Below, in pieces: positions 2,140 to 33,707 of a stretch of 40,340 bases of DNA. Each line of letters begins with the position of its first letter. Positions within the stretch are counted from its first letter, which is position 1. A program made the translations under genes and the position numbers. The stretch lies in UHGV virus genome UHGV-0384112; one strand, 5' to 3'. Source of the stretch: a virus. The notes below the pieces were generated by a model that was not told the origin of the DNA, made no database searches, and saw only the letters and a list, made by a program, of their open reading frames with translations.

Positions 2140-2140
2140 C

Positions 2141-3337
2141 TTGAAAGGAGGTGAGAAAGTGGGGATTTTTCAAAAGGCGGTAGGATACTTCACAAAAAAA
2201 GCAACGGTTCCTTTAGAAGAATACTTTTGTAAATTGCAAGTTGATTTTGTGTATCGAAAATTTGCGATTGAAACTTGTATTGATTTGATTGCAAATGCGA
2301 TGAGTAAAGCGGAATTCAAGTCATATGAAGATGGAAAAAATAAAAAGAATGATCTTTACTATAGGCTGAATGTAGCTCCTAATAAGAAAAATAATGCAAC
2401 AGAATTTAGAAAAAAACTGATCAGGAGATTAATATTCTACAATGAAGTATTGATCGTTTCTCCGTCTAATAATTCTAGCGAAATATTTATTGCGGATAGT
2501 TGGGATGTCACAGAATATGCATTGAAAGATGATGTGTTTTCTCAAGTGCAAATTAACAACATAGTCCTTGATAGAGAATTTCTAGAAAGTGATGTTATCT
2601 ATATAAAATACGCAGATCAACAAATTAGGCAACTAGTCGATGCGTATTATCAAGCGTATGGGAAACTCATTTCTAGTGCCATGAATGTTTACAAGCGCTC
2701 TAACGCTCGTAGATACGTACTGAAAGGGAATTTATTCCGACCGCAAGACAATACAACACAAGATCAAATCAATAAAATGATGACATCACAATTTAAGGCT
2801 TTTATGGAAGCTGATAATGCAGGTGCGGTATTTCAATTACAAAATGAGTACACATTAGAAGATTTCAGCGGAAACTTCCAAAGCAATTCAAGAGATATAA
2901 AAAACTTAATAGACGACATCTTTGAGATGACAGCAGCAGCGTTTCACGTTCCGAAAAACCTACTAAAGGGAGACATGAGTGGGTTATCGGATCAAGTGGA
3001 CGCTTTTTTAATGTTCGAAATCATACCGATTGCTGAACTTATTCAGGATGCGTTTAACGCTAGTCTCTATGAAGTAGAAGAATACTTGTCAGGGAATTTT
3101 GTACGTGTGGATACAACTATGATCAAGATTACTAGCTTCAAAGATTTGGTTGACGCTATTGATGTAGGCATTAGAAATGGAGTATTTACAATCAACGAAG
3201 GAAGAGAACGCGTTGGAAATGATCGCTCTGATAAGGCGATGGCAGATGAAATATTTATAACTAAAAACAATCAACAAGTATCGAAAGGAGGTGAGGCGAA
3301 TGACGACAATGAAAACATTTCTAGCAGTAAAGAATGA
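2141..3337 (+). CDS. portal protein (HK97-family-like)
   Basis: 398 aa, directly after terL and before the prohead protease. Canonical order. Confidence 0.8.
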   Translation: MKGGEKVGIFQKAVGYFTKKATVPLEEYFCKLQVDFVYRKFAIETCIDLIANAMSKAEFKSYEDGKNKKNDLYYRLNVAPNKKNNATEFRKKLIRRLIFYNEVLIVSPSNNSSEIFIADSWDVTEYALKDDVFSQVQINNIVLDREFLESDVIYIKYADQQIRQLVDAYYQAYGKLISSAMNVYKRSNARRYVLKGNLFRPQDNTTQDQINKMMTSQFKAFMEADNAGAVFQLQNEYTLEDFSGNFQSNSRDIKNLIDDIFEMTAAAFHVPKNLLKGDMSGLSDQVDAFLMFEIIPIAELIQDAFNASLYEVEEYLSGNFVRVDTTMIKITSFKDLVDAIDVGIRNGVFTINEGRERVGNDRSDKAMADEIFITKNNQQVSKGGEANDDNENISSSKE

Positions 3338-5155: not shown

Positions 5156-6031
5156 ATGAAGTATATTCTTTGTCAGCCGGCAATCAATCGGTTTAAATGG
5201 GAGCTTGAAGTTTGTTTAACTAATCTGAAGAAACTAGGAATCAAAGATATCGTATTGCTTTTCAGCAGACACGATGATCAGATTCCTATTTTTTTTGAGA
5301 AGGAATATGGTGTTGAAGTTCATGTGTACGATGATCTGCGGGACGACAAAGAGTATATTCCTTCGATTAAACCATATTTATGGTGGAAATATTTAGAAGA
5401 AGATCATTCGCGTGAGGACGACCGATATTTCTATATCGATTCGGATGTCATTTTCAATAAAAGAATTAATTTGCGCAAATTGCCTTCTAAAGATGATGTT
5501 TGGTATTGTAGCGACTGCTGTAGTTATCTAAGTCTTGATTATATTAGAAGCTGTGAAAACGGAGAAAATATTCTAAAAGATATGGCAAACATTGTAAATG
5601 TTACAGTAGAATCTTTGGAAACTATAAACACTAATTCAGGAGGCGCACAGTGGGTTATTAACCGTCCTAAAGCGAATTATTGGAAAAAGGTTTATCTGGA
5701 TTCTAATCGGCTATATCGCTACCTTAGAGGGCAAAAAACAAATATACAAATCTGGACAGCCGAGATGTGGGCACAGCTTTGGAACATGATGTATTTCAAT
5801 ATTGGTCCTAAAGTTCACGAGGAATTAGACTTTTGTTTTGCTACTGATCCAATAGAAAAAGTTAAAGAAGTAAAAATCTTACACAATGCTGGAGTAACAA
5901 CAAACGATGAAGATTTATTTTTCAAAGGGAGATACGTGACTTCTACGCCTTTTGATGAAGATTTATCATTTGTAAACAAGAAAAAATGCTCTTACGCATA
6001 TGTTAAAGCAATTAAGGCGGTGGTTAGATGA
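5156..6031 (+). CDS. putative GT-A fold glycosyltransferase (GT8-like motifs) embedded in the head operon
   Basis: A hydrophobic strand followed by DxD (YFYIDSDVIF). About 60 aa later comes NSGGAQWVINR, which resembles the GT8 NsGv motif, then KILHNAG. RBS AGGTGA precedes ATG 5156. The stop overlaps the next gene start (ATGA), so it is co-translated with the structural genes. Confidence 0.45.
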   Translation: MKYILCQPAINRFKWELEVCLTNLKKLGIKDIVLLFSRHDDQIPIFFEKEYGVEVHVYDDLRDDKEYIPSIKPYLWWKYLEEDHSREDDRYFYIDSDVIFNKRINLRKLPSKDDVWYCSDCCSYLSLDYIRSCENGENILKDMANIVNVTVESLETINTNSGGAQWVINRPKANYWKKVYLDSNRLYRYLRGQKTNIQIWTAEMWAQLWNMMYFNIGPKVHEELDFCFATDPIEKVKEVKILHNAGVTTNDEDLFFKGRYVTSTPFDEDLSFVNKKKCSYAYVKAIKAVVR

Positions 6032-8673: not shown

Positions 8674-11600
8674 ATGGCTAAAAAGAGAACAGAAGCAGAA
8701 GTAACTTTCATAGCTAACGATGACGGATTGAAATCTACGTTAAAAGAAATCAGTGCTGAATTAACTAAAAATAGAGCAGAATTAAAACTAGAACAAGCTC
8801 AATTACAACAGACTGGTTCTGAATCAGACAAGTTAGGAAGTAAATTATCTTCTTTAGAAAAGCAGTATGAATTACAAAGTCAAAAAGTTGAAGTAACTAG
8901 CCAACGTTTAGCCAATGCGAAAAAATATTATGGAGAAAATTCCACCGAAGTTCAGAAACTTGAAAGAGAACTGATTAATCAACAAACAGCGCAACAACGT
9001 TTGTCAAACGAAATTGATAAAACGAGTAATGCACTAGCTCAAGCAAAAGGCGAAATACAGACGTACGAGTCTACAATGCAACAGTTGGATAGCGAACAAA
9101 AAAATGTTCAAGCTAGTGCTTCTCTGATTGAATCCGAATACAAAAAATGGCAAGCAACTGCTGGTCAATCAGCTTCTGAAGCCGAGAAATTAGCGAAAGC
9201 CCAAGAATATGTTTCTCAACAATCTGAAAATGCGGAGAAAACGATAGATATCCTAAGACGACAGTTAGAAGCTACACAGTCTGAATTTGGCGCTACATCC
9301 ACAGAAGCAATGCAGATGGAAGCGAAGCTTAATGATGCTGAACGTGAATTTGAAGAGTTAGGACAAGCTGCTAAAAATGTAGATACAACTAACTTGGACG
9401 ATATCGGAAGCAAAATAGATATGAATAATTTAATGGAAGCTTCTGACGTTTTAAGCGACATTGGCGATAAGCTTACAGAATTAGGGAAACAAGCAGTGGA
9501 CTCTGCTAACAGTGTAGGTAGTTCCCAGAGTAAGATACAAGCTAATTTTGGTTTGTCTAAACAAGAGGCTGAAGAATTAACGAATGTAGCCAGAGACATT
9601 TATTATAAAGGTTTTGGAGAATCGTTAGATCAGTCCACAGATGCATTGATTTTGGTAAAGCGTAATTTAGGAGATTTAAATAATCAAGATTTACAAAATA
9701 TCACGGAACAAGCTATGGTCCTAGAAAACACCATGGGCGCTGATATGGATGAAACGTTACGTGGTGTAAATGGCTTAATGGTCAATTTCGGCTTGAGTGC
9801 TCAAGATGCAATGGATTTAATGGTTTCGGGTACTCAAAACGGTTTAGATAAAACGCACGAATTAGGCGACAATATGGCAGAATATAGCCAATTATGGAGT
9901 CAAATGGGATATTCAGCTGATGAAACGTTCGGAATGCTTCAAAATGGTTTAGATGCGGGTGCTTATAACCTTGATAAAGTCAATGACTTAGTTAAGGAAA
10001 TGGGAATATCGTTAACAGATGGTCGATTTGAGCAAAACATGGATATGTTTAGTGAAAGTACTAGAAAAGCTTTTGAAGAGTGGAAAAATGGCGGAGGAAC
10101 ACAAAAAGACGTTATTAATTCCATGATTCAAGATTTTAGCAATATGGATGGTCAATACGACCAATTAAATAAAGCTTCGACAATTTGGTCTGCGCTTGGC
10201 GAAGATAATGCGATGAAAGTTGTCCAATCTTTAACTGATGTTAACCATACATTTGATGATGTTAGTGGATCTGCACAAAAAATGAATGAAGATTCTACTA
10301 CTCCGTTGCAAGAGTTGAACGGGAAAATAGCTGAATTAAAGGATTCATTAGCTCCTATAGGCAACACAATCATAGATGCACTCGAACCAGTAATTGATTT
10401 TCTAGGAAAGATGGCTGATGCGTTTAATAATCTTCCACAACCAGTACAGGATTTCATTGTTGCTATAGGTGGTCTTACAGCAGCATTTGGCATACTGTTA
10501 CCGGCAATACTAGCCGTGTCATATTTATTTGGTCCGATGATGCTTATAATTGGAGGAATTATAGCTGTTATAGCAGGCGTTATTGTGGCAATTAAGAACT
10601 GGGGTGCAATTACTGACTGGTTTAGTGGTTTATGGAAAAAATTTACTGATTGGTTGGGTGATACTTGGGAAAGTATAAAAGACGGAGCCTCATCAGTTTG
10701 GGATGGGGTTAAAGAAACCTGGTCTGGATTTGTAGATTGGGTTCAAGATATTTGGCAAGGAGTTTCTGATTGGTTTGGAGAGCTATGGAGCGGATTAGTT
10801 GAAGGAGCTTCCAACATCTGGCAAGGAGTCCAAGAAACTTGGCAAACATTCGTTGATTGGGTTTCAAATATTTGGAACGGAGTCAAAGAAGTATGGTCGA
10901 TTATTTGGGCAGACATTGTAGGAATTGTTCAAATACCATGGACATTAATAACGTCATTGATTCAAGCTGGTATTAATATTATCGTGGGTATTTTTGATGT
11001 AGCTGGACAGTTATTGGGCGCAGCTTGGCAAGCTGTTTGGACACCTATTTCTGATTTCCTTAAAAATACTTGGGATACTATGACACAATGGATAAGTATC
11101 GCTTGGAATGGGATTGTAACTACATTCCATACTATATTTGATCCAGTAGTGGCATGGTGGAATGGTATATGGACAGCTATTAGTACTACGGCTTCAAATA
11201 TTTGGAATTCAATTAGTGCAACAGCTTCTAGTATTTGGAACAGTATCAAGAATACAATCACTAGCTTGGTACAAGCAGCTGCTACAGTAATTCAAAATAT
11301 TTGGTCAACTGTATCTAGTTGGTTAGGTGGAATTTGGAATTCAATCAGCTCTACAGCATCAAATATCTGGAATAGTGTGACTAGTAGTATAAGCAATGCT
11401 ATAAACGCAGCTAAAAGTGCCATTCAAAGTGTTTGGAATAGTATATCTTCGTGGATTAGCGGAATTTGGAACGGTATCAAAAATACTGCTTTGAATCTTT
11501 GGAATGGAATTACAAGCACTATTAGCTCTAAAGTAAACGATGGAAAAAATGCAATTTCAAGCGGTTGGTCCAATCTAACAGGTATTGTTTCCGACATATT

Positions 11601-12105
11601 CAATAATGTTAAAAGTACAATTGCTAACATATGGGAAGGCATCAAAAAGACTGTTAGCGCTCCAATTGATTGGATTAGAGACAAAATCAGTGGCATTTTT
11701 GATAATTTGAATATTTCTATACCACATATTCCGTTACCGGAATTTATCATGGAAGGCAGCTTTAACCCGCTAAAAGGTCAAATCCCCCATTTGCGTGTAA
11801 AATGGCATGCTAAAGGAGGTATCTTTACTAAACCAACTTTACTAGGTGGAATGAACGGTGTCGGTGAAGCAGGACCTGAAGCAGTTTTACCTTTGAAAAG
11901 ATCTGTTTTGCAAGAAATTGGTGATCGTATCTTGAGTAGCACATCAGTTTCATCTAGGGCACAAACGATTCAACCTGTGAATAACTACGAATTCAATTTC
12001 ACAATTGATGGTAACGCAGATGAGGTTACTATGAAGCAAACAACTCAACAAATCATTGATAGCATTACAAAAATTCAAAATGATAATGCTTCGGCATGGC
12101 GTTAA
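8674..12105 (+). CDS. tail tape measure protein
   Basis: 1143 aa with an N-terminal coiled coil, a central hydrophobic/TM segment and a long Trp-periodic repeat region. It follows the G/GT chaperone. Confidence 0.9.
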   Translation: MAKKRTEAEVTFIANDDGLKSTLKEISAELTKNRAELKLEQAQLQQTGSESDKLGSKLSSLEKQYELQSQKVEVTSQRLANAKKYYGENSTEVQKLERELINQQTAQQRLSNEIDKTSNALAQAKGEIQTYESTMQQLDSEQKNVQASASLIESEYKKWQATAGQSASEAEKLAKAQEYVSQQSENAEKTIDILRRQLEATQSEFGATSTEAMQMEAKLNDAEREFEELGQAAKNVDTTNLDDIGSKIDMNNLMEASDVLSDIGDKLTELGKQAVDSANSVGSSQSKIQANFGLSKQEAEELTNVARDIYYKGFGESLDQSTDALILVKRNLGDLNNQDLQNITEQAMVLENTMGADMDETLRGVNGLMVNFGLSAQDAMDLMVSGTQNGLDKTHELGDNMAEYSQLWSQMGYSADETFGMLQNGLDAGAYNLDKVNDLVKEMGISLTDGRFEQNMDMFSESTRKAFEEWKNGGGTQKDVINSMIQDFSNMDGQYDQLNKASTIWSALGEDNAMKVVQSLTDVNHTFDDVSGSAQKMNEDSTTPLQELNGKIAELKDSLAPIGNTIIDALEPVIDFLGKMADAFNNLPQPVQDFIVAIGGLTAAFGILLPAILAVSYLFGPMMLIIGGIIAVIAGVIVAIKNWGAITDWFSGLWKKFTDWLGDTWESIKDGASSVWDGVKETWSGFVDWVQDIWQGVSDWFGELWSGLVEGASNIWQGVQETWQTFVDWVSNIWNGVKEVWSIIWADIVGIVQIPWTLITSLIQAGINIIVGIFDVAGQLLGAAWQAVWTPISDFLKNTWDTMTQWISIAWNGIVTTFHTIFDPVVAWWNGIWTAISTTASNIWNSISATASSIWNSIKNTITSLVQAAATVIQNIWSTVSSWLGGIWNSISSTASNIWNSVTSSISNAINAAKSAIQSVWNSISSWISGIWNGIKNTALNLWNGITSTISSKVNDGKNAISSGWSNLTGIVSDIFNNVKSTIANIWEGIKKTVSAPIDWIRDKISGIFDNLNISIPHIPLPEFIMEGSFNPLKGQIPHLRVKWHAKGGIFTKPTLLGGMNGVGEAGPEAVLPLKRSVLQEIGDRILSSTSVSSRAQTIQPVNNYEFNFTIDGNADEVTMKQTTQQIIDSITKIQNDNASAWR
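10610..11700 (+). repeat. about 33-bp (11-aa) periodic repeats inside the tape measure (…W..I..G.S..W.GVK.TW…)
   Basis: Dozens of 11-residue units with conserved W/F/I positions (DWFSGLW, DWLGDTW, SVWDGVKETW, DWVQDIW, IWNSISS…). A typical TMP length-ruler repeat. Confidence 0.7.
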
Positions 12106-18423: not shown

Positions 18424-18644
18424 ATAATAAAACGTTCGAAGTACTAAAATGGTTCGCACTGGTAATTATTCCCGCACTAGCTACTTTCGTGGGGTTAGTT
18501 GGTAAAGCGCTCAATTGGCAGTACACAGATATCTGTGTTGTCATCATTACTGGTTTTGGCGCGTTTTTAGGGAGTGTGTTGGGTGTATCAAATCGAACCT
18601 ACAAAATGTTCTCGGCTGAAAGCGAAGAAGGAGGAAACAAATGA
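18420..18644 (+). CDS. holin (two TM segments)
   Basis: 74 aa with two hydrophobic helices and a charged C-terminus. Directly upstream of, and overlapping, the endolysin. Confidence 0.6.
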   Translation: MNNKTFEVLKWFALVIIPALATFVGLVGKALNWQYTDICVVIITGFGAFLGSVLGVSNRTYKMFSAESEEGGNK

Positions 18645-19666
18645 AAAAGAAAATTACTATTACTGCGATGAGCCTGTTAACGGCTCTTTTTTTATTACCC
18701 ATTAATACGTTTGCTTATACTATTAATGACGAGTATAATTTAGCGCCGAATCAAGGAGACTCCAGATTAGCAATTCCTAACAAAATTATTTTGCACGAAA
18801 CTGGAATAGATGCACCAGCAAGAAACGTAGCCGCCAACATGAAAAATAATTATAACGGAAGCAATTCTTATACTACAGATGTTATTGGTGACGGTGGGAT
18901 TGTTTACCGTGTGGGTGAGCAAGGATATGTTTCGTGGGGAGCTGGTAACGCTAATCCTTATGCGCCTGTACAGATTGAATTACAGCGCACATATGATAAA
19001 GCATTGTTTGAAAAAAACTATCGAGCTTATATTGAATATACAAGAGATAGTGCAAAAAAATATGGAATTCCATTGACTCTTGATCAAGGAACTTCTTTAT
19101 TTACAAAAGGAATCATTTCTCATTTGTGGGTGACAAATTATGTTTGGGGGAACCACACAGATCCATATGGTTACTTATCGCAAATGGGAGTTAGCAAAGA
19201 AAAGCTTGCTTATGATTTAGCTCATGGATTTACCGATGAAAATCCAACAACTTCTGAAAACAAGCCTGTCATTGATCCAACACGAGCTGGTGCAGCTAAT
19301 CCTACGCTGACAGATGGAACAAATCACGCCCACATTGATCAGTTTGGGGAAATCGAAAACGCAAACTTGCATGTGGCTGGATGGCACATTGCTAACTATA
19401 AATACGAGTATATTTTCATTATGGACTACAATACTGGGAAAGAATTAGCTCGAGTAAGAGCTGATGGAATTTATAGACCAGATGTAAACCAAGCTTATAA
19501 TACTTCTGGAAATGTTGGTTATCATGTATCTTTCAATATGCGTAATTTTCCTAGTAAGAAAGTCTATGTAATGATGCGGGCAACGAATGATCCAGAGGGA
19601 AACACTAAAGGCGGTGCGCAAGATTTCCATGACAAACGTTGGTATTTAAATATTCCTAAACGATAA
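18641..19666 (+). CDS. endolysin, Amidase_2-like N-acetylmuramoyl-L-alanine amidase with an N-terminal Sec-type signal peptide and a C-terminal wall-binding domain
   Basis: MKKKITITAMSLLTALFLLPINTFA|YT is a signal peptide. IILHETG…SYTTDVIGDGGIVYRVGEQGY…GNANPYAPVQIEL resembles amidase_2/PGRP. Last gene of the late operon. Confidence 0.65.
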   Translation: MKKKITITAMSLLTALFLLPINTFAYTINDEYNLAPNQGDSRLAIPNKIILHETGIDAPARNVAANMKNNYNGSNSYTTDVIGDGGIVYRVGEQGYVSWGAGNANPYAPVQIELQRTYDKALFEKNYRAYIEYTRDSAKKYGIPLTLDQGTSLFTKGIISHLWVTNYVWGNHTDPYGYLSQMGVSKEKLAYDLAHGFTDENPTTSENKPVIDPTRAGAANPTLTDGTNHAHIDQFGEIENANLHVAGWHIANYKYEYIFIMDYNTGKELARVRADGIYRPDVNQAYNTSGNVGYHVSFNMRNFPSKKVYVMMRATNDPEGNTKGGAQDFHDKRWYLNIPKR

Positions 19667-19670
19667 AAAT

Positions 19671-19688
19671 AGCTCCTCGTTGAGGAGC
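19671..19688. terminator. hairpin GCTCCTC-gttg-GAGGAGC after the endolysin
   Basis: Perfect 7-bp stem. The U-tract lies on the minus-strand side only, so its function as a + strand terminator is uncertain. Confidence 0.35.
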
Positions 19689-19702
19689 AGTACATAACTA
19701 TA

Positions 19703-19732
19703 TTGACAACTATAAAAATTATTCGATAAAAT
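19703..19732 (+). promoter_or_regulatory. putative sigma-A promoter (TTGACA-N18-TAAAAT) upstream of the tRNA
   Basis: -35 at 19703-19708 and -10 at 19727-19732, seen directly. Confidence 0.35.
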
Positions 19733-19855
19733 AGTGATGTTATCGCATATCTTCACTATCACCCATAAATAGTCACACTCCAAGCTATGCGATAACAGGT
19801 TTGTTGCCACACATTCTACTGGTTGATTGTTTATGGCTTTATGTGGCAACAACCA

Positions 19856-19929
19856 GTACCCTTAGCTCAGTTGGTCAGAGCAGACGGCTCATAACCGTCC
19901 GGTCGTAGGTTCGAGTCCTACAGGGTACA
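19856..19929 (+). tRNA. tRNA-Met (or Ile2) with anticodon CAT
   Basis: Cloverleaf folded by hand. Acceptor GTACCCT/AGGGTAC, D-arm GCTC-AGTTGGTCA-GAGC, anticodon arm GACGG-CTCATAA-CCGTC, T-arm GTAGG-TTCGAGT-CCTAC, discriminator A. No CCA is encoded. The G1-C72 pair means elongator type. Confidence 0.8.
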
Positions 19930-20015
19930 TTAACGTAGCCATTTGAATCGTTCTGTGTTAGAATTTTTTTGAAGAGTATTATACAAGCTAAAGCTTTTCT
20001 TCATTGCCACTCAAA

Positions 20016-20040
20016 TGAGTGGCTTTTTTATGTATCCTTT
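20016..20040 (+). terminator. rho-independent terminator after the tRNA
   Basis: GCCACTC-aaat-GAGTGGC followed by TTTTTTA. Confidence 0.7.
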
Positions 20041-20152
20041 TATGGATTAATGAAAGGATGTTTCACATAGTTATACTTCTGTATATTTGAAAAGTTTTAC
20101 TTTGATTTTTAAATAGAAAGACATTTGGGTTAAATTGTGAGATAATAATAAA

Positions 20153-20212
20153 GAAGAGTTTAAAGCGCACCCCAAACCACTTCCCCATAAGTGTGTTACG
20201 CTTTAAACTCTT
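20153..20212. repeat. perfect 14-bp inverted repeat AAGAGTTTAAAGCG…CGCTTTAAACTCTT with a 31-nt GC-rich loop
   Basis: Seen directly in the AT-rich non-coding stretch. Function unknown. Confidence 0.5.
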
Positions 20213-20442
20213 TTATATTTGAAGCCATTAAAAAGCATACCATATTTTTGAAAAAAAGTGAGAAAAAAGGCTTACAATTGGAGTGGTAGTTAATTAGTGA
20301 CTTATTTTTGATTTTATAGCACTGATACTATAAAATATAGATATCATCATATTACACAATCTTAATACTAACTTAAAAAATATCTCCTTTCACAAGTATG
20401 GTGATAAAATTCGTTCCGGGCTACCTTTTTAGGTAGCCTACT

Positions 20443-20531
20443 TTAATCTTTATACCTTTCTGGATCAACGAAAGTATACTTTATATAGTCATAACGCCGA
20501 TGATCGCTACGTGCGTCCGGCACGTCAGTCA
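20443..20531. repeat. 89-bp direct repeat, copy 1 (about 97% identical to 23923..24011); 3'-end fragment of the minus-strand gene at 23923..24225
   Basis: Manual alignment with two mismatches. Read on the minus strand it encodes …TDVPDARSDHRRYDYIKYTFVDPERYK plus the stop. It ends exactly at the left end of the IS. Confidence 0.85.
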
Positions 20532-20605
20532 TGAATCGGCTACACTAGACTAGACAGAAAAAATAAGGTGTGTAGAATAATAAAAAACACACTGGAGGAT
20601 TTTTC

Positions 20606-20896
20606 ATGTCAAGACGTCAACGAAGAACCTATTCAAAAGAATTCAAACAACAAATCGTCGATCTCTATCTCGCTGGTAAGCCTCGCGCAGAAATTATTCG
20701 AGAGTATGAGCTTACGCCTTCTTCTTTCGATAAATGGATGAAGCAAGCACAATCAACGGGCTCATTCAAAGAAAGAGACAACTTAACACCAGAACAAGCA
20801 GAATTGATCGCACTAAGAAAGAAAAATAAGCAACTCGAAATGGAGAATGATATTTTAAAGCAAGCGGCGCTGATATTCGGACGAAAAGACAAGTAA
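20606..20896 (+). CDS. IS3-family transposase OrfA (HTH)
   Basis: 96 aa containing the IS3 OrfA leucine-zipper/HTH pattern (KEFKQQIVDLY…LEMENDILKQA). Confidence 0.8.
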   Translation: MSRRQRRTYSKEFKQQIVDLYLAGKPRAEIIREYELTPSSFDKWMKQAQSTGSFKERDNLTPEQAELIALRKKNKQLEMENDILKQAALIFGRKDK

Positions 20897-21768
20897 TTGA
20901 TGCCAACAAGCATAAATATTCCATATCAGCGATGTGCAAAATTCTAAATATTTCTCGTCAAACCTACTATTATCAAGCGAAACCGATCGAAAATGAGTCC
21001 GACTTAGAAGAGATCGTTCAGGAAGAGTTTATTCGAAACCGAAAGGCTTACGGTACCCGAAAATTGAAGAAGTGTTTAGCAAAGCGTGGGCTTCAACTCA
21101 GTCGGCGCCGAATCGGTCGAATCATGAAACGCCGCGGATTGACATCTACCTATACGATCGCTCATTTTAAAGGGCAACGAACAGCTTGTAATGAAGCGAA
21201 AACAGCGAATGTATTAGATCGGACCTTTACACAAGAACAGCCATTGGAAGCCATCGTTACGGATCTTACTTATGTTCGCGTGGGGAAAAAGTGGCATTAT
21301 ATCTGCTTAATACTTGATTTGTTTAATCGAGAAATTATTGGTTATTCCTGTGGTGAGAAGAAAGATGCCTCATTGGTAAAAGAAGCCTTTGGACGGATAC
21401 CGTATTCTTTAACAGACGTCAAGCTTTTTCATACAGACCGGGGAAAGGAATTTGATAACCAAACCATTCATGAGATTCTGAATGGTTTTGGAATTACTCG
21501 TTCATTGAGTAGGAAGGGTTGTCCGTATGATAATGCCGTTGTGGAATCAACCTATAAATCTGTCAAAGTAGAATTCGTGCATCAATACCAATTTGAGACA
21601 CTGGCACAGCTACGTCTAGAATTGTTTGATTATGTGCATTGGTGGAACTATCTACGCTTACATGGCACGTTGGCGTATGAAACACCGATCCAAATTCGAC
21701 AACAGAGATTGGCGAAGCGAATCCTTGATAATGAGCGCGGATCTGATACCTCTGGAGAGGCAGCGTAA
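20851..21768 (+). CDS. IS3-family transposase OrfB (DDE integrase domain); probably expressed as an OrfAB fusion via -1 frameshift near 20884-20888 (A_AAA_AG)
   Basis: The -1 frame is open from 20851, and the first ATG is at 20932. DDE-domain hallmarks such as HTDRGKEF, and the C-terminal pattern LHGTLAYETP typical of IS3 transposases. Confidence 0.75.
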   Translation, partial: YFKASGADIRTKRQVIDANKHKYSISAMCKILNISRQTYYYQAKPIENESDLEEIVQEEFIRNRKAYGTRKLKKCLAKRGLQLSRRRIGRIMKRRGLTSTYTIAHFKGQRTACNEAKTANVLDRTFTQEQPLEAIVTDLTYVRVGKKWHYICLILDLFNREIIGYSCGEKKDASLVKEAFGRIPYSLTDVKLFHTDRGKEFDNQTIHEILNGFGITRSLSRKGCPYDNAVVESTYKSVKVEFVHQYQFETLAQLRLELFDYVHWWNYLRLHGTLAYETPIQIRQQRLAKRILDNERGSDTSGEAA

Positions 21769-21855
21769 TTGAATGATTGTGCTTCTGCCGGAGAAAATCA
21801 GATCCGAGGATGCTCATTGTCAAGGGCAATCGTAGCCATAACACCGCAGCATTCA

Positions 21856-22400
21856 CAACACCTTATAATTTTTGTCAAAAAAAGTGTTGCCATTCCACTT
21901 TTTTTAAATATGCGTTCTCTGCTCTTAAACGAATAACTTCTTCTTCAAGAGACTCATCTTTAAGTTTTTTAGGAATGTTTAGCTTGGAATTCATACTAAT
22001 TTTTCTGCCCCTTTTTTGGCTCTCAAGTGAAGAAGCACCGCCTTCTTCATATTGCTCTATCCATTTACTTAGAGTTCTATTTGAACCGATATTAAATTTT
22101 TTAGCAGTTTCTTGGATAGAAAGACCATTTGTTTCCATATATTCTATAACATCAAGTTTAAATTTTGTAGTGTAGCTTTTGCCACCTCCAACCAAGCCTT
22201 CCCAACCATGATAGTTATAAATCCTTACCCAATGTCTAACCAGTGTACGATTTATTTGATATTTATGTGCAAGATATTTGTAGCCGCCTTCGTTATTTAA
22301 ATAGTCTGAAACTACTTTTTTCTTAAAAACAAATGTATATTTCCGCAAAAAAAGCACCCCTTTTAATTAGATTTCTAGTCTAACTTTTGGGGTGCACATC
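21856..22400 (-). mobile_element. truncated IS3-family (IS150-group-like) element; its orfB was lost or displaced by the neighbouring IS
   Basis: An intact IS150-like orfA with no orfB downstream. The downstream side is occupied by the other IS. There is an inverted repeat GCACCCC…GGGGTGC near 22346-22395. Confidence 0.5.
21875..22357 (-). CDS. IS150-like transposase OrfA (remnant element)
   Basis: 160 aa containing HTH_Tnp patterns (FKLDVIEYMETNGLSIQETAKKFNI). Confidence 0.7.
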   Translation of the reverse strand: MLFLRKYTFVFKKKVVSDYLNNEGGYKYLAHKYQINRTLVRHWVRIYNYHGWEGLVGGGKSYTTKFKLDVIEYMETNGLSIQETAKKFNIGSNRTLSKWIEQYEEGGASSLESQKRGRKISMNSKLNIPKKLKDESLEEEVIRLRAENAYLKKVEWQHFF

Positions 22401-22691
22401 ATTTTTGAGGGGAAGTACATATAGTTGTTGATATAGTTGCTAATATTGTTAGCTAATTTGTTAGTAAAACTGTATACGAATTTAGATAGTAAAAAAACAG
22501 TTTGTTCCTTATATAGAGGCACTTTTACTACTGATTAAATGTCAGATATGCTTACAAATATACTTATAAATATGCTTACAAAATTAGCTAATATTTCCGT
22601 TGACAAAGCTTTGTTACTATTGTTAAACTAAATTGACTAGCAAAAGTGAAACATAAATTTATTAAATAAATGTAAAAATTAGGAGAAATCA

Positions 22692-23099
22692 ATGTCTTAT
22701 AGAGTACAATTAATAATTTCAGAAGATGTAGAAAGTCAGCAATTTGGCACTAATGTTATTAATAAAGTAATTAATCCAGCTCTTTCTATTAATGCGCCTT
22801 TAATTCCTACTGCTTTATCATTTTCTGTAACAGCTGTGGTGTCTGAGATAGAGGATACAGAAAAGATAAAAATAGTAGAAATTGAAGTTTTAAACAAGAA
22901 TGAAAAACAAATTTTTTCTACGGGTGAAGTATCGGTAAGCTTGCCTCCTCAAGTTAACGATATAAACTTTAATATAAACGCCAGAAATGTCTTGGTTGAA
23001 GAAGCAGGAGAGCATTATGCTGTTGTTAAATTTAATGGAACTGAGATTGGAAGGCAAATCTTTGATATCAAGGTCAACAAACCAGTGGAAAAAAATTAA
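22692..23099 (+). CDS. hypothetical beta-rich protein (cassette gene 1)
   Basis: 135 aa with RBS AGGAG 7 nt before the ATG. First gene of the three-gene moron cassette. Confidence 0.5.
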   Translation: MSYRVQLIISEDVESQQFGTNVINKVINPALSINAPLIPTALSFSVTAVVSEIEDTEKIKIVEIEVLNKNEKQIFSTGEVSVSLPPQVNDINFNINARNVLVEEAGEHYAVVKFNGTEIGRQIFDIKVNKPVEKN

Positions 23100-23112
23100 G
23101 GAGACGATACGG

Positions 23113-23514
23113 ATGCTTGATATAGTACCATCAAATACACATCGGAGTGGTAGCTTAATAAATTTTGCTGCGATTTTTGCTTGCGCATCGGTAATTCTAG
23201 CATCTCCAGTTGTTGTGGATGCAAGTTCTACTCCGAAAACTAAAAATGATAATCAACTTGTAATTACTACAAAAAATGAGATTAACACAATTTCAAGTAA
23301 TGATGGCAAAATTTTTGATGTGATAAATACGGTTTTAAAAAGAAAAGCTGAAATCAATATAAAATATGATGAAGATTTAAACTTGTATTTCTTTGTTATC
23401 AAAACAACATCTGAATTGTTTTCCTCAGATTACGATGTTTTGGATACTCTCGATAATGTATTATCTGACTATAAATATATGGGGAAATCTGTAGTAGCAA
23501 CTTTGGGGGAATAA
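23113..23514 (+). CDS. hypothetical membrane-anchored protein (cassette gene 2)
   Basis: RBS AAGGAG before ATG 23113. One hydrophobic helix (LINFAAIFACASVILASPVVV) near the N-terminus. Confidence 0.5.
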   Translation: MLDIVPSNTHRSGSLINFAAIFACASVILASPVVVDASSTPKTKNDNQLVITTKNEINTISSNDGKIFDVINTVLKRKAEINIKYDEDLNLYFFVIKTTSELFSSDYDVLDTLDNVLSDYKYMGKSVVATLGE

Positions 23515-23515
23515 A

Positions 23516-23887
23516 ATGTTTGACTTTAATGAATATTTATCTATTTCCAAACAAATTGAATCAGATGATAAATATAATTCTAAAGAATCTTATAGAAGAA
23601 CTGCTGTTTCAAGAGCATACTACAGTGCTTTTAAAAAATCTGATGAGTATTTGAAAGAAAATTATGATATTATTTATAATGGAAGTAGCGGAAAAGGAAG
23701 CCACCAAACCGTTTGGAATTTGTTTTCAACAGTTAAGGAATTGAATACCTTAGGAATACATAATAGTGGGTATAGAATGTTAGAGAAAAGAAAATGTGCT
23801 GACTATATTCCTAATGAAACCATTACGAAAACAGATATGGCGCTGATGAATCGAGAAGCAGAAAAAATAATAAACAAACTCACCTAA
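23516..23887 (+). CDS. HEPN-like domain protein (cassette gene 3)
   Basis: The start is 2 nt after the upstream stop. Helix-1 motif RRTAVSRAYYSAFKK, a mid His (GSHQTVWNLF) and a C-terminal R-x4-Y (RKCADYIPNE) followed by an acidic helix resemble PF05168-type HEPN. Motif-level only. Confidence 0.4.
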   Translation: MFDFNEYLSISKQIESDDKYNSKESYRRTAVSRAYYSAFKKSDEYLKENYDIIYNGSSGKGSHQTVWNLFSTVKELNTLGIHNSGYRMLEKRKCADYIPNETITKTDMALMNREAEKIINKLT

Positions 23888-23922
23888 TGAATTTCAAGCG
23901 AGTTTGTTTGTTATTTTTTTAT

Positions 23923-24011
23923 TTAATCTTTGTATCTTTCTGGATCAACGAAAGTATACTTTATATAGTCATAACGCCGATGATCGCTACGTGCGTCCGG
24001 CACGTCAGTCA
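23923..24011. repeat. 89-bp direct repeat, copy 2
   Basis: See copy 1. Confidence 0.85.
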
Positions 24012-24225
24012 CGATATCAAACAAAAAGTATACACCCTTCTTCATTCTAGTTTTCGCAGCAGGAATTTTGAAATAGTTCTTATTAGAATAGTAGAGATTG
24101 ATTAATAAGCTATCTTCGATTGCTAAAAAGAAAACTTCTGAATTCCATACTTTATAAAAATCTTTGATAAATCTATTCGAAGGGTCAAATTTAAACCATA
24201 ATTGTGTTTTTCCTTCCATCAGCAT
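23923..24225 (-). CDS. hypothetical protein whose 3' end is duplicated at 20443..20531
   Basis: 100 aa with no recognisable motifs. It contains repeat copy 2. Confidence 0.5.
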   Translation of the reverse strand: MLMEGKTQLWFKFDPSNRFIKDFYKVWNSEVFFLAIEDSLLINLYYSNKNYFKIPAAKTRMKKGVYFLFDIVTDVPDARSDHRRYDYIKYTFVDPERYKD

Positions 24226-24311
24226 AAAAGTTCACCTCAAAAAGAGTATACGAACGAATGTTCTTTTTGTGAAGGCGGAATTTAATATACTGAATAATAG
24301 AAAACAAGTAC

Positions 24312-24508
24312 TTGTGCCAAATTATGTGCCAAAAAAATTCGAATTCAACAAAATGTAAACAAATAGAAAACCTTCTATATTAAGATTTCCTGCAATAACA
24401 AACACAACAGAAGACGTGTAATAGTTAGTCAGGAACGTATAAATAACCCCTGTATCCTTTGCGGTACAGGGGTTTGTTTTGTATTTGTGCCAAAAATGTG
24501 CCAAACTA
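24312..24508. repeat. four copies of TGTGCCAAA in two tandem pairs (24313-24334 and 24487-24508) flanking a hairpin; candidate arm-type integrase-binding sites / attP region
   Basis: Seen directly. Immediately 3' of the integrase gene, where attP usually lies. Confidence 0.4.
24449..24482 (+). terminator. rho-independent terminator (CCCCTGTA-tcctttgcgg-TACAGGGG + TTTGTTTT)
   Basis: Seen directly. It lies between the two TGTGCCAAA repeat pairs. Confidence 0.55.
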
Positions 24509-25675
24509 GTTATCATTTTTATATAAACTATCGAACACAGTATTGATTTTTTCTTTATCCTGATCTTCAAGCTCTCGAACAATATGAAGATAAGTAGACA
24601 TTGTAGTTTCTAAACTGCTATGTCCTAAACGTTTCGATACGCTAAGTATATTTACTCCTTGATAAAGTAAAATAGATGCATGTGTATGCCTTAGTCCATG
24701 CAAAGTAAATTGCTTTTCAATCCCTAATTCTTTTAATTTTTTGCGCAAATATTTGCTGACGGCGTTTGATGAAACTAATCCATTTTTTAAGTTGAAAAAA
24801 ACAAAATTATGAGGGTTTTTGATTTCAAAATTCTCGAATAATTCTTTTTGATTGATTTTAAACTTTTTTAAGAGATCAATCGTATGTTTATCAATGGAAA
24901 TTTTCCTATTTGAAGTTTCGTTTTTTGTTTTTCCCCATTCATTTAATTTATAATTCCATGTTTTATTAATAGTGATGATTTGATCTTCGAAATCGATATC
25001 TTCCCATGTTAATCCTAGAAGTTCAGCAAATCGCATTCCAGTGGCACCAGCAACTAACACGAGCATAGGAGAAGAGTACTGCGCAGAAAGGTTTTCTTCT
25101 ACGAGTTTCATTAAAGATTTAAATTGATCATAATCTAAATATTTATCTTCTTTTGGCTTCAATGAATCTTTTCCTTTGATTACTGCTTTTCTAGTTGGAT
25201 CAAACGGAATTAATCCTTCTTCTACGGCATCTTTCAACGACGCTCTAATATGGTTATTAAACTTAATAACGGTAGATTTTACATGGTCTTTAGCATACTT
25301 ATTTAAAAAGCGTTGATATCCCACTCTATCTAAATCAGAAATCAATACCGCTGGCATATATTTCTTTATGTTCATTAACGTATCTTCGTATTTTCTATAA
25401 GTGATAGGAGATACTGTTCCTTCTTTATAAAGTTGCATCCAATCCTCAAAGTAATCTGATAATAATAGATTTTTGCGATCCCCTTTAAGGCCTTTGTTCA
25501 AGTTATATTCTAATTCGTTGGCGGCATCTTTTGCTTCTCCTTTTGTCTTAAATCCTGATTTTCTTATCTTCGTGTATTTTCCGTCATCTTTTTTGTATGA
25601 AATTTCGTATTGCCAACTATTTCCACGTTTGACTAATCTTGCCATAATTGAATCAGCTCTCTTTCTCTGATACAA
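24506..25675 (-). CDS. int: tyrosine site-specific integrase
   Basis: 389 aa. The C-terminal catalytic region contains R…HGLRHTHASILL…LGHSSLETTMSTYLH (R-H-R-Y). Confidence 0.9.
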   Translation of the reverse strand: MYQRKRADSIMARLVKRGNSWQYEISYKKDDGKYTKIRKSGFKTKGEAKDAANELEYNLNKGLKGDRKNLLLSDYFEDWMQLYKEGTVSPITYRKYEDTLMNIKKYMPAVLISDLDRVGYQRFLNKYAKDHVKSTVIKFNNHIRASLKDAVEEGLIPFDPTRKAVIKGKDSLKPKEDKYLDYDQFKSLMKLVEENLSAQYSSPMLVLVAGATGMRFAELLGLTWEDIDFEDQIITINKTWNYKLNEWGKTKNETSNRKISIDKHTIDLLKKFKINQKELFENFEIKNPHNFVFFNLKNGLVSSNAVSKYLRKKLKELGIEKQFTLHGLRHTHASILLYQGVNILSVSKRLGHSSLETTMSTYLHIVRELEDQDKEKINTVFDSLYKNDN

Positions 25676-32009: not shown

Positions 32010-32351
32010 ATGGAAAAAGAACTTTCCACTCTAGATCAATATTTGATTGATCCTGATTGGGGCAAGCCGAAAATTGAGGAAACAAGTGGTCGAAAAATCA
32101 GACGAAATCTTTTGACGAATGAAGAACTAGCTTGGGATCAAGATGATTTAGGCAACCATGTAACTATTTGGGATCATGTTTATCTTATCCATCTATCGAA
32201 GCATTCGAATAAACCTGAATATATTTACGTCATCGAAGATGGCTTGATTGATGCGCTAGAAGAGTACGACAGAGATAACTTGATTGATATCTCTTATTAC
32301 GGACCAGGTAAGAAATACATTGCTGAAATGGAGGCAGAATTTGATGAGTGA
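32010..32351 (+). CDS. hypothetical protein
   Basis: 113 aa with RBS AAGGAG. Confidence 0.5.
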   Translation: MEKELSTLDQYLIDPDWGKPKIEETSGRKIRRNLLTNEELAWDQDDLGNHVTIWDHVYLIHLSKHSNKPEYIYVIEDGLIDALEEYDRDNLIDISYYGPGKKYIAEMEAEFDE

Positions 32352-33015
32352 AATCAAAGGGACAACGAACTTTGAAAAACTTTTTAGTCGTAAGTTAAAT
32401 AAAATTCTCAAGAAAAAAGGAAATTTTGATTATTTATCTTGGGCTCACGCGTGGGAGATTATGAAAAAGAATGATCCACAGGCAACGGTAACTATTAATG
32501 AGTACAAACACTACAGGGTTGTTTCTGGAACTCATCAAGACTTTCTTGTTGAGGAATATAAACCTTTTCTTATGGATGAAACTGGGACTTATGTATCTGT
32601 CTCAGTAACGGTTAAAGGACACACGGAAACCGAATTATTTCCTGTTTTAGATTATCGAAACCAACCAGTTGTTAAACCAAATGCAATGCAAATCAATAAC
32701 TCATTGAAGCGATGCTTTGTGAAAGCATTGGCTCTACACGGACTGGGATTATATGTATTTCAAGGGGAAGATATTCCAACACCACCTAGAATCGATACAA
32801 AGAAATTAAACATGCTAGAGACGATTCTAGAAGCTTTCAATGAGCAGATGGGTAAAGATATGACCAAAACCTTAATCGAATATGTTAATGAGCAGACAGA
32901 TAAATTAGGGCTCTTAGCTGATAACGTTGAAACTATTGAACAGTTAAGCTATGAGCAATGTGCCTTGATGGAGCGAGCAATAGCAGCTAAGAGAAAAGAA
33001 TTAGATAAGAAGTGA
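32344..33015 (+). CDS. putative single-strand annealing protein (Rad52/Sak-like; tentative)
   Basis: Position in the recombination/replication module. The motif …NAMQINNSLKRCFVKALALHGLGLYVFQGED recalls Sak/DUF1071-type SSAPs from memory only. ATG 32344 follows GGAGG. Confidence 0.35.
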   Translation: MSEIKGTTNFEKLFSRKLNKILKKKGNFDYLSWAHAWEIMKKNDPQATVTINEYKHYRVVSGTHQDFLVEEYKPFLMDETGTYVSVSVTVKGHTETELFPVLDYRNQPVVKPNAMQINNSLKRCFVKALALHGLGLYVFQGEDIPTPPRIDTKKLNMLETILEAFNEQMGKDMTKTLIEYVNEQTDKLGLLADNVETIEQLSYEQCALMERAIAAKRKELDKK

Positions 33016-33020
33016 TATGA

Positions 33021-33707
33021 GTGTTTAAACCATTAATCGATTCATATTCAGCGGTTCTGAAAAAGTTCAAAGGAAAAGACATAAGCGCAACCATCAATGA
33101 GGAAGTGAACATTGATCGACTAAAGACGATGTATGACGGCTACGATGGTGATCGAGTCATTGAAATTCGTTTTATTGATCCTAGACGTTTCACCGTACAG
33201 CAACGAAACTTCATCTATGCGCTGATAGGCGATATTTTTATCGATACAGGCATGCCAACGGACTTCTGGAAGGAATTCTTCTACTTTCGTTTTGAAGGTG
33301 TCACAGGGCGCAAAATAAGCCTGAAAGACGAATCGAATACAACTGTGAGTGATGCCAATGTCTTAGCAAATATCATCTTAGATTTCATCTTTGAACATCA
33401 TATTCCTTTCAAAGAAGGCTATGAGATTTTACCTGCGAATCAAGAATATTACTTCTACAAATGCATCACAAAAAGAGTCTGCTGCATCTGTGGCAAAACA
33501 GGAGCTGACATCGATCACTTTGACAAAGCGCTAGGAAGACGAAAGCGCAAAGAAGTTGATCATGCAGAGTACACATTTGCAGCACTCTGCAGAATCCATC
33601 ACACAGAGAAGCACAAAATAGGTGTGATTAATTTCAAAAATAAATATCAAATCAAAGGGATCAAATTAAACCAGAAAACAATCAAAAAGTTAAATATTGG
33701 AGGGTAA
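33021..33707 (+). CDS. HNH-motif nuclease-like protein
   Basis: C-x2-C…DIDHF…LCRIHHTEKH matches the HNH zinc-finger nuclease pattern. Confidence 0.45.
   Translation: MFKPLIDSYSAVLKKFKGKDISATINEEVNIDRLKTMYDGYDGDRVIEIRFIDPRRFTVQQRNFIYALIGDIFIDTGMPTDFWKEFFYFRFEGVTGRKISLKDESNTTVSDANVLANIILDFIFEHHIPFKEGYEILPANQEYYFYKCITKRVCCICGKTGADIDHFDKALGRRKRKEVDHAEYTFAALCRIHHTEKHKIGVINFKNKYQIKGIKLNQKTIKKLNIGG

Follow-up and report, generated by a model that had tools for sequence, protein, structure and literature searches.

The 40,340-nucleotide virus genome UHGV-0384112 (hereafter the window, meaning this whole stretch of DNA) is a complete-looking temperate siphophage genome of Enterococcus faecium, and its relatives include the E. 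faecium phage 4995_1 and several E. faecium records of ~38–39 kb that were deposited as 'plasmids'. Between its endolysin and integrase genes lies an interval in which a tRNA gene and a non-coding spacer are followed by the insertion sequence (IS) ISEfa8, the stump of a second IS, ISEnfa3, a three-gene cassette and a small gene of the family DUF5960 (Table 1). The 3' end of this last gene occurs twice, once in its proper place and once as an orphan fragment between the spacer and ISEfa8, and the origin of this direct repeat is the subject of the present analysis.

Aligned without gaps, 20443–20531 and 23923–24011 are identical at 87 of 89 positions (97.8%), the mismatches being at 20452/23932 (A/G) and 20455/23935 (C/T), and the longest perfectly identical tract between them is 76 nt. 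A repeat finder returned 20442–20534 and 23922–24014 (93 nt, 3 mismatches, spacing 3480), of which the final 3 nt match by coincidence, TGA being the ISEfa8 end and CGA belonging to the gene; the biologically meaningful repeat is 20442–20531 and 23922–24011, 90 nt with 2 mismatches. Copy 2 comprises the last 29 codons and the stop codon of the intact 100-residue minus-strand DUF5960 gene. Copy 1 lacks the rest of the gene upstream of it and stops at 20531, immediately before ISEfa8, whose left inverted repeat is TGAATCGGCTACAC (at 20532). An earlier sequence-only reading of this DNA, which had described two copies ~97% identical and an orphan that stops exactly where the IS begins, is thus borne out on both points. 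Both mismatches are synonymous in the DUF5960 frame, and both copies encode a C terminus ending in ERYKD followed by the stop. On its left the repeat reaches 1 nt past the DUF5960 stop, to the point where the spacer of one phage type and the 35-nt cassette tail of another (T-type and C-type, described below) diverge, and its right edge is the ISEfa8 insertion point; since the span runs from a module boundary to an IS end, its length is fully explained. The orphan 89-nt fragment is a scar, not a gene, of which annotators should be warned, and the structure itself occurs in many sequences that are already public.

A scan of the whole window found this to be its sole long dispersed direct repeat, and chance is therefore excluded. 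The other repeat family consists of three imperfect 45-nt in-frame repeats (11167–11376) inside a 1143-residue open reading frame (ORF; 8674–12105) that we take to be the tape-measure gene. Misassembly, by which reads of two prophages are collapsed or chimerized, could in principle create such a structure, E. faecium being polylysogenic and IS-rich and short-read assemblers being liable to be misled. However, the identical junction recurs in phage 4995_1, in four E. faecium 'plasmid' records and in several IMG/VR prophages, amounting to at least 10 independent public records from different laboratories and countries; some of these span the whole region unbroken, and there are derivatives with further IS256 or ISL3 insertions. 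Because of this recurrence the structure is not taken as an artefact of assembly or sequencing, the chance of which we consider negligible.

An intact ISEfa8 with flanks of two origins

The limits of ISEfa8 were set by the shared extent of hundreds of plasmid copies (99.5–100% identical) together with its inverted ends. The element starts with TGAATCGGCTACAC and ends with GTGTTGCCATTCCA at 21897, its inverted repeats having the 5'-TG and CA-3' termini of the IS3 family. It contains orfA (20606–20896) and, in the –1 frame, orfB (20932–21768); its transposase matches NCBIfam transpos_IS3 (E = 1.7e-73), and identical copies are annotated with a programmed frameshift. In the window ISEfa8 is flanked by TCA on the left and CTT on the right, with no 3-bp target-site duplication, although simple insertions of the element elsewhere have such duplications (TTG in locus L100, AGG in L102; L numbers denote the loci compared). 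The DNA to its left is DUF5960, but to its right is ISEnfa3 sequence starting mid-element, not the rest of DUF5960. The two sides of ISEfa8 therefore belong to different insertion sites, and a simple in-place insertion into DUF5960 is ruled out. Each context is found intact elsewhere, the left one (spacer–DUF5960) in L034, L077 and many others, and the right one (ISEnfa3, then the intergenic region that we call Preg, then the cassette) in L094. Missing target duplication and flanks from different contexts, each intact elsewhere, are the features of a junction formed by IS-mediated recombination or deletion.

The ISEnfa3 stump represents ~500 bp at the transposase-start end of the element, including a truncated orfA; it is 100% identical to full copies and stops mid-element exactly at the right end of ISEfa8. 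After that end the window has C followed by 7 T (21898–21905, the T-run being 21899–21905), compared with C and 6 T in the complete ISEnfa3 copies checked and apparently also in other composite loci (as inferred from BLAST coordinates); the extra T is a private homopolymer change or a sequencing error. A composite transposon was considered and rejected, because ISEfa8 is the only complete IS and occurs once; the 504-bp stump comes from another element, and the two lie on one side of the cassette instead of bracketing it. The region is a recent rearrangement, its ISEfa8, ISEnfa3 stump and cassette sequences all having 100% identical counterparts elsewhere.

Preg begins with the distal half of a C-type lysin terminator (TTTTTGAGGGG) and continues to a promoter-like site, TTGACA-18-TAAACT (22600–22629), sites of this kind being no commoner in the region than in shuffled sequence. 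An 81% homologue of Preg lies 3' of the lysin in phage EH-TP1. The spacer directly adjoins the intact DUF5960 stop codon in most related phages (B1578, EH-TP1, L034, L077 and others). An Rfam scan of 19600–24600 gave nothing above the gathering score except the tRNA, which ARAGORN calls Met; PGAP annotates the identical gene in 4995_1 as tRNA-Ile, presumably with a lysidine-modified CAT anticodon. The attP site presumably lies in the intergenic region between DUF5960 and the integrase gene. Further along the genome, an HNHc nuclease gene (33021–33707) follows the gene for a Sak-type protein, and the phage thus has a recombination module of its own.

Table 1. Features of the endolysin-to-integrase region and other features discussed in the text (window coordinates, except the last two rows)
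Feature	Coordinates	Strand	Remarks
Endolysin (amidase)	18641..19666	+	Left anchor of the variable interval; Pfam Amidase_2, E=6.4e-13; amidase/PGRP in relatives
Lysin terminator-like hairpin	19672-19688		
tRNA, anticodon CAT	19856..19929	+	T-type module; ARAGORN; Rfam tRNA, 71 bits
T-type spacer, 512 bp	19930..20441		Non-coding; terminator-like hairpins 20006-20023 and 20418-20439
Repeat copy 1, orphan DUF5960 3' fragment	20442..20531	-	A..C allele; 5' side cut by ISEfa8
ISEfa8 (IS3 family), 1366 bp	20532..21897	+	Apparently intact; 100% identical to plasmid copies
ISEnfa3 stump (IS3 family, IS150-like), 504 bp	21898..22401	-	Cut by ISEfa8
Preg, C-type intergenic region, 290 bp	22402..22691	+	Follows the lysin stop directly in L074
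Three-gene cassette	22692..23887	+	g1 22692-23099; g2 23113-23514; g3 23516-23887
Cassette terminator hairpin	23872-23909		
Repeat copy 2, DUF5960 3' end	23922-24011		G..T allele
Intact DUF5960 gene, 100 aa	23923..24225	-	Pfam DUF5960, E=3.5e-18; PHROG 16386
Intergenic region, 280 bp	24226-24505		Between DUF5960 and integrase; right anchor together with the integrase
Tyrosine integrase	24506-25675	-	Relatives annotated with a shorter start
Sak-type (Rad52-like) single-strand annealing protein	32284..33015	+	Pfam SSAP_Sak, E=1.3e-33
L019 (flipped): 124-nt DUF5960 fragment	2135-2258		
L019 (flipped): intact DUF5960	2698-3000		

Parental layouts, composites and DUF5960 alleles

The comparison covered 80 IMG/VR loci encoding DUF5960 together with GenBank phages and PLSDB records, onto all of which fifteen segments of the window were mapped. 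In the first layout, T-type, the lysin is followed by a pre-tRNA region, the tRNA, the spacer and an intact DUF5960, and there is neither cassette nor IS (L034, L016, L075, L076, L077, L079, L082 and L084). These are the 'empty' loci for which the sequence-only reading had suggested looking among relatives. The integrases of L034 and L016 are 99–100% identical to that of the window. Records labelled 'Listeria phage LM 4-11-1/4-14-1' (OR846730/OR848098) and 'Acinetobacter phage D2SVT' (PQ554527) also match the tRNA, spacer and DUF5960 region at ~95%; over this region the D2SVT match has the same extent, identity and score as that of Enterococcus phage vB_ElaS_B1578, and these host labels look doubtful.

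The second layout, C-type, is seen in L074, where the lysin, its terminator, Preg, g1–g2–g3 and 35 nt lead to an intact DUF5960, and tRNA, spacer and IS are absent. The lysin terminator of L074 is CCCCTCATTTTTGAGGGG, and its right half (TTTTTGAGGGG) is what follows the ISEnfa3 end in the window. An intermediate is provided by L094, a C-type locus whose lysin terminator loop contains a complete 1427-bp ISEnfa3; the orientation of this element and its junction with Preg are those seen in the window, but ISEfa8 and copy 1 are absent. The endolysin terminator hairpin is a recurrent site of ISEnfa3, which is found in it or at it in different phages and in either orientation (L037, L062, L067, L089, L094, and the window at 22390–22412), and in L089 the segment from ISEnfa3 to the lysin 3' end is present twice.

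Composite loci of the window type were found in 4995_1, LR135421, LR135447, CP063541, CP063545, L010, L011–L014 and L091. All have the identical junction between copy 1 and ISEfa8, which indicates a single founding event, and in all of them copy 1 has A and C at the two variable sites (A..C; the alternative allele is G..T). Further IS have landed in composites, namely ISL3 in CP063541, L007 and L012, and in L010 an IS256-like element whose transposase gene was read from a 392-residue ORF. In 76 related loci the lysin and DUF5960 stops are 354 to 6110 bp apart (median 2.45 kb; ~775 bp in T-type and 4255–4256 bp in composite loci), which supports the earlier suggestion that this is the most plastic accessory spot in the window. 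The T-type and C-type phages sampled carry different integrases. A 113-nt fragment in L010 (1617–1729; also in L015, L022, L025 and L086) is 97% identical to the integrase-internal stretch 24590–24703 of the window. It sits just past the terminator after DUF5960, at the right end of integrated prophages, with window positions 24485–24589 (105 nt) missing, and suggests either a remnant of an integrase gene in the flanking host DNA or an attachment site overlapping int.

Deleting 20532–24011 in silico joined 19856–20531 to 24012–24225 (890 nt), and the best match to this product was L077, with 3 mismatches over 872 nt. Recombination between the repeats would remove 3480 bp (ISEfa8, the ISEnfa3 stump and the cassette) and restore both the T-type layout and an intact DUF5960; a deletion formed within the 76-nt identical tract would leave A..C. 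The three differences of L077 would be accounted for by its G..T at the two repeat-distinguishing sites and by position 24035. The exact deletion derivative (the window minus 3480 bp) was not found among the sampled loci, L077 being the closest (3/872 differences), and loss of the segment through the repeats is plausible though undocumented among these loci. Of the loss or inversion by homologous recombination foreseen in the sequence-only reading, deletion (or amplification) is possible, but direct repeats cannot invert.

The existence of a one-copy 'empty' site (L034, L077), and an insert flanked by direct repeats of a gene 3' end, as in many integrative elements, might recall attachment-site duplications left by site-specific integration of a cassette at the DUF5960 3' end, or else a single crossover within the 89 nt by a circle carrying the IS and the cassette; a circle excised by recombination between the repeats could in principle re-enter other phages by homology. 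Yet the 3.4 kb encode no site-specific recombinase, only the ISEfa8 transposase and the truncated ISEnfa3 orfA, and the limits of the repeat coincide with an IS terminus at one end and with a gene or module boundary at the other. Moreover, the cassette is present without repeats in the C-type loci L074 and L094, and the right-hand crossover in the window lies outside the 89 nt, at 24036–24143 (see below). The attachment-site or integrative-element origin was rejected on the first and third of these grounds, and is to be regarded as highly improbable.

Both repeat alleles, A..C of copy 1 and G..T of copy 2, are common among intact DUF5960 genes, and all C-type genes have G..T. Since each copy has a natural allele of its own and both single-copy parental layouts are known, the copies probably come from two phage lineages and not from an in-genome paralogue. 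The simplest sense of a 'second copy of that gene', as the earlier note put it, would be that DUF5960 was duplicated within one phage genome, that the cassette and IS were inserted between the copies and that ISEfa8 destroyed the left one, and the 97.8% identity of the copies suits this. No sampled phage, however, has two complete DUF5960 genes, and each repeat copy has a single-copy parental context of its own (cassette–DUF5960 in IS-free C-type phages, spacer–DUF5960 in T-type phages). In addition, both differences are established synonymous natural alleles, unlike random decay, and the nearest relatives of the left arm are not those of the cassette arm, all of which makes a one-phage origin improbable. 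The IS did recombine with a second copy of the gene, as had been proposed, but that copy most probably belonged to a different phage lineage. Likewise, the 3.4-kb segment does owe its position to a recent rearrangement, in line with the 100% identical IS and cassette copies elsewhere, but not to a simple insertion, because in C-type phages the cassette naturally adjoins copy 2; to the C-type lineage, the added DNA is the tRNA, the spacer and copy 1.

In the composites L005, L006 and L011–L014, the DUF5960 gene beside the cassette has the C-type pattern of single-nucleotide polymorphisms (SNPs), with 1 mismatch in 320 nt to L074, as predicted for the fusion of a T-type left arm to a C-type right arm. 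The DUF5960 gene of the window is chimeric, with the C-type base at 24035 and the T-type bases of L077 and L034 at 24144, 24148, 24151, 24168, 24184 and 24187, and beyond it the window carries an integrase of the L034/L016 type. Other composite phages cover only 25–55% of the early region of the window, but 59–96% of its structural half, the latter at 97–99% identity. The SNP switch, the integrase and the early region together indicate a second homologous exchange within 24036–24143, by which the composite block was moved onto a different lysogeny and replication backbone (integrase and early region). DUF5960 serves as the conserved link by which variable cargo is connected to variable integrase modules.

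Irregular alleles are seen in two composites. Phage 4995_1 (L001, OP745419.1), at 5823–5975, lacks window positions 24070–24276, so that its DUF5960 is truncated, and its copy 2 is A..C. In L091 (485–574) the allele of copy 2 is itself chimeric, G..C. Both cases may stem from conversion between repeat copies or from further exchange.

Origin of the repeat

The window is a T-type left arm joined through ISEfa8 to a C-type right arm. We propose, at a probability of about one half, that the repeat is the scar of an unequal crossover between two E. faecium temperate phages that was mediated by ISEfa8, two copies of which recombined. The parents would have differed in the accessory module that separates the endolysin gene from the conserved DUF5960 gene, the latter lying beside the integrase and presumably beside attP: lysin–tRNA–spacer–DUF5960 in the T-type parent and lysin–promoter region–three-gene cassette–DUF5960 in the C-type parent. 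In the C-type parent, ISEnfa3 would first have entered the lysin terminator at its loop, to be followed by an ISEfa8 insertion within ISEnfa3 itself, and a second ISEfa8 copy would have been present in the T-type DUF5960 gene, 89 nt from the stop codon. While the two genomes shared a cell or were replicating together, their ISEfa8 copies would have recombined homologously and so united the T-type left arm with the C-type right arm, giving a product with both accessory modules in tandem and with the terminal 89 nt of DUF5960 in duplicate. By this or by the single-copy route discussed below, one crossover between replicating concatemers and subsequent packaging would be expected to give a viable phage ~3.5 kb longer than its T-type parent. 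The composite would then have spread, and in the lineage of the window the further crossover in DUF5960 would have brought in a different integrase and early region. For the T-type parent this predicts the junction ...GTCAGTCA[ISEfa8]TCACGATATC..., with a TCA duplication (also written ...GCACGTCAGTCA[ISEfa8]TCACGATATCAAAC...), and for the C-type parent, inside ISEnfa3, ...GGTTTCTAACTT[ISEfa8]CTTTTTTAAAT....

Recombination between two IS copies is favoured because it is the commonest source of IS copies with hybrid flanks and is directly visible for ISEfa8 in E. faecium plasmids, where the copy in L103 has on its left the flank found in L104 and on its right that found in L101. Such swapping is direct evidence that ISEfa8 copies recombine with each other. 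The anatomy, the lack of a target duplication, the two parental layouts, the ISEnfa3 intermediate, the difference in alleles and the chimeric DUF5960 gene are all shown by the sequences; it is by inference that we prefer two recombining copies to a deletion made by one, and the place and time of the event are likewise inferred.

The same two-phage fusion could be the work of a single ISEfa8, the left end of which, from its site in the C-type ISEnfa3, attacked the T-type DUF5960 with the loss of about one genome length. Both genomes would have been in one molecule or cell, for instance as tandem or cointegrated genomes or as a concatemer, or a reactive head-to-tail dimer of the IS would have been involved. 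This accounts equally well for the lack of a target duplication and for the truncation of ISEnfa3, and does so with one ISEfa8 insertion only; a simple DUF5960::ISEfa8 insertion was not found in the collections searched. Head-to-tail junctions are highly reactive intermediates of IS3-family elements, and one of ISEfa8 exists in plasmid pUK040_1 (L098, NZ_CP091578.1, at ~1417–1445), with a 3-nt spacer between the two ends (CCATTCCA-att-TGAATCGG, the latter being the TGAATCGGCTACAC end), as in a tandem dimer of the IS or a junction of the circle type. On the other hand, IS3-family elements normally move by copy-out/paste-in via a circle, and adjacent deletions are a less common outcome. The ISEnfa3::ISEfa8 parent, which this route also requires, was likewise not found in IMG/VR or the JGI metagenomes, and with different integrases in T-type and C-type phages, tandem integration at one attB is not an obvious setting. 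A single-copy event is the main alternative, though we think it less likely than recombination between two copies.

Several observations weigh against recombination between two ISEfa8 copies, or against the parents as drawn here. The right junction of a DUF5960::ISEfa8 insertion (IRR-N0-6-CGATATCAAACAAAAA, where IRR and IRL are the right and left inverted repeats) had 0 matches in IMG/VR, the JGI metagenomes and the GTDB representative genomes, and the left junction of ISEnfa3::ISEfa8 (CAAGGTTTCTAA-N0-6-IRL) had 0 matches in IMG/VR and the JGI metagenomes. Because these collections hold a small part of the sequenced E. faecium isolates, and because the DUF5960-side pattern is allele-specific, the absence of the parental junctions is weak evidence; the window's own left junction also had 0 matches in the GTDB representatives. 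The two-copy scheme also calls for ISEfa8 to have inserted twice, independently and in the same orientation, and is in this respect less parsimonious than a scheme with one insertion. Finally, the T-type loci with the spacer closest to that of the window (L077, L034) carry G..T, not the A..C of copy 1, meaning that the exact T-type donor is unsampled or that gene conversion occurred.

Rad52-like recombinases promote exchange between short or diverged homologies in temperate phages (PMC3945230). By analogy, the Sak protein of the phage may have taken part in these recombination events, or could catalyse a future deletion between the repeats.

Similar scars, cargo and comparison with known systems

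Two other kinds of partial duplication were found in the same interval. In L019, L066 and L071, a lysin–cassette arm that matches L048-like phages (98.5% over 2258 nt) ends in 124 nt of the DUF5960 3' end and is fused, at a 10-nt microhomology (TTTCTTCATT), to the spacer at about its position 58, after which comes a second, intact DUF5960; no IS is present. This is an independent, IS-free fusion of the same kind as the scar in the window. In L003 (3257–3331 and 5268–5342) and L027, a 75-nt tRNA segment is duplicated around ~1.9 kb of cargo, the copies being 97% identical, and this is another stacked-module scar in the lysin–DUF5960 interval. On these three independent kinds of partial duplication (89 nt–ISEfa8, 124 nt–spacer and 75-nt tRNA) rests a more far-reaching idea, by analogy with the paratox model described below, that the DUF5960 3' end and the spacer might form a 'linker' favoured for recombination, where Enterococcus phages time and again stack cargo modules or exchange them. 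We consider this quite unlikely. Were it true, the Sak protein might drive such low-homology exchanges, and the 89-nt repeats could let the block of IS and cassette excise as a circle and re-enter other phages by homology.

Searches of Pfam, PHROGs, NCBIfam, PADLOC and PDB sequences with the cassette and DUF5960 returned only DUF or uncharacterized families and weak matches. g1 matches DUF6941 and phrog_5881; g2 belongs to no family and has a weak HamC/DUF3223 match (E = 2.5e-4); g3 matches phrog_5176, with a weak PADLOC match to HEPN_IX (E = 0.006). The N-terminal helix of g3 (...SRAYYSAF...) can be read as HEPN-like. No PDB sequence relatives were found for g1 or g3. The cassette might be a defence or abortive-infection module, although no signal pointing that way was significant. 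Its GC content is 30–31%, compared with ~37% for the structural genes. Relatives have other cassettes at the same place, for example with genes annotated as toxin, XRE or SecB-like. An AlphaFold2 model of DUF5960, built on an Enterococcus-only alignment of 17 sequences, has a mean predicted local distance difference test (pLDDT) score of 40, too low for the model to be of use. We found no literature mentioning DUF5960, and the papers found on ISEfa8 together with prophages were genome surveys only, in the titles and abstracts of which the junction is not described.

The repeat makes the steps of cargo gain traceable in a phage of a hospital pathogen, from an IS-free parent and an ISEnfa3-bearing parent to a composite joined by ISEfa8 and on to a further crossover. 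Acting as portable homology, an IS lets two phages fuse their accessory regions, here giving a product with both a tRNA module and a three-gene cassette, and the lysin-to-DUF5960 interval is marked as the cargo hot spot of this group of E. faecium phages.

Compared with IS recombination junctions known from plasmids, chromosomes and prophages, the structure shares an intact IS3-family element with perfect ends, no 3-bp duplication and flanks from two contexts. It differs in that the partners are two phage genomes, the product of which must stay packageable and viable, and in that the crossover is unequal by only ~3.5 kb and stacks two modules rather than deleting or inverting DNA. As in the mosaicism of temperate phages (De Paepe et al. 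2014, PMC3945230), the boundaries lie at gene borders, conserved genes flank variable cargo, a crossover can be traced inside DUF5960 (24036–24143) and the window encodes a Sak/Rad52-like protein. Unlike there, the primary junction lies in portable homology, the IS, and not in shared phage sequence, and it is for this reason that a partial gene duplication was left behind.

The right end of Streptococcus pyogenes prophages has a small conserved gene, paratox (prx), adjacent to toxin genes that can be exchanged (PMC6224593), and according to that article, which cites Aziz et al. (2005), paratox has been proposed as a recombination hot spot. DUF5960 is similarly small (100 residues) and conserved, stands at the extreme right prophage end by attR and beside variable cargo, and shows signs of recombination within or at the gene. 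The resemblance is positional only, however, as no sequence relation to Prx was detected: a Pfam scan at E ≤ 0.01 gave DUF5960 only, and there was no PDB sequence match. The cassette may also be likened to the morons and lysogenic-conversion cassettes that Gram-positive siphophages carry between lysis genes and attachment site; its promoter-like site, terminator hairpin, lower GC content and location between lysin and att are consistent with a moron, although promoter-like sites are as common in shuffled sequence. The structure as a whole is the outcome of ordinary IS-mediated recombination acting on modular temperate-phage mosaicism, an event of a known kind that calls for no new mechanism.

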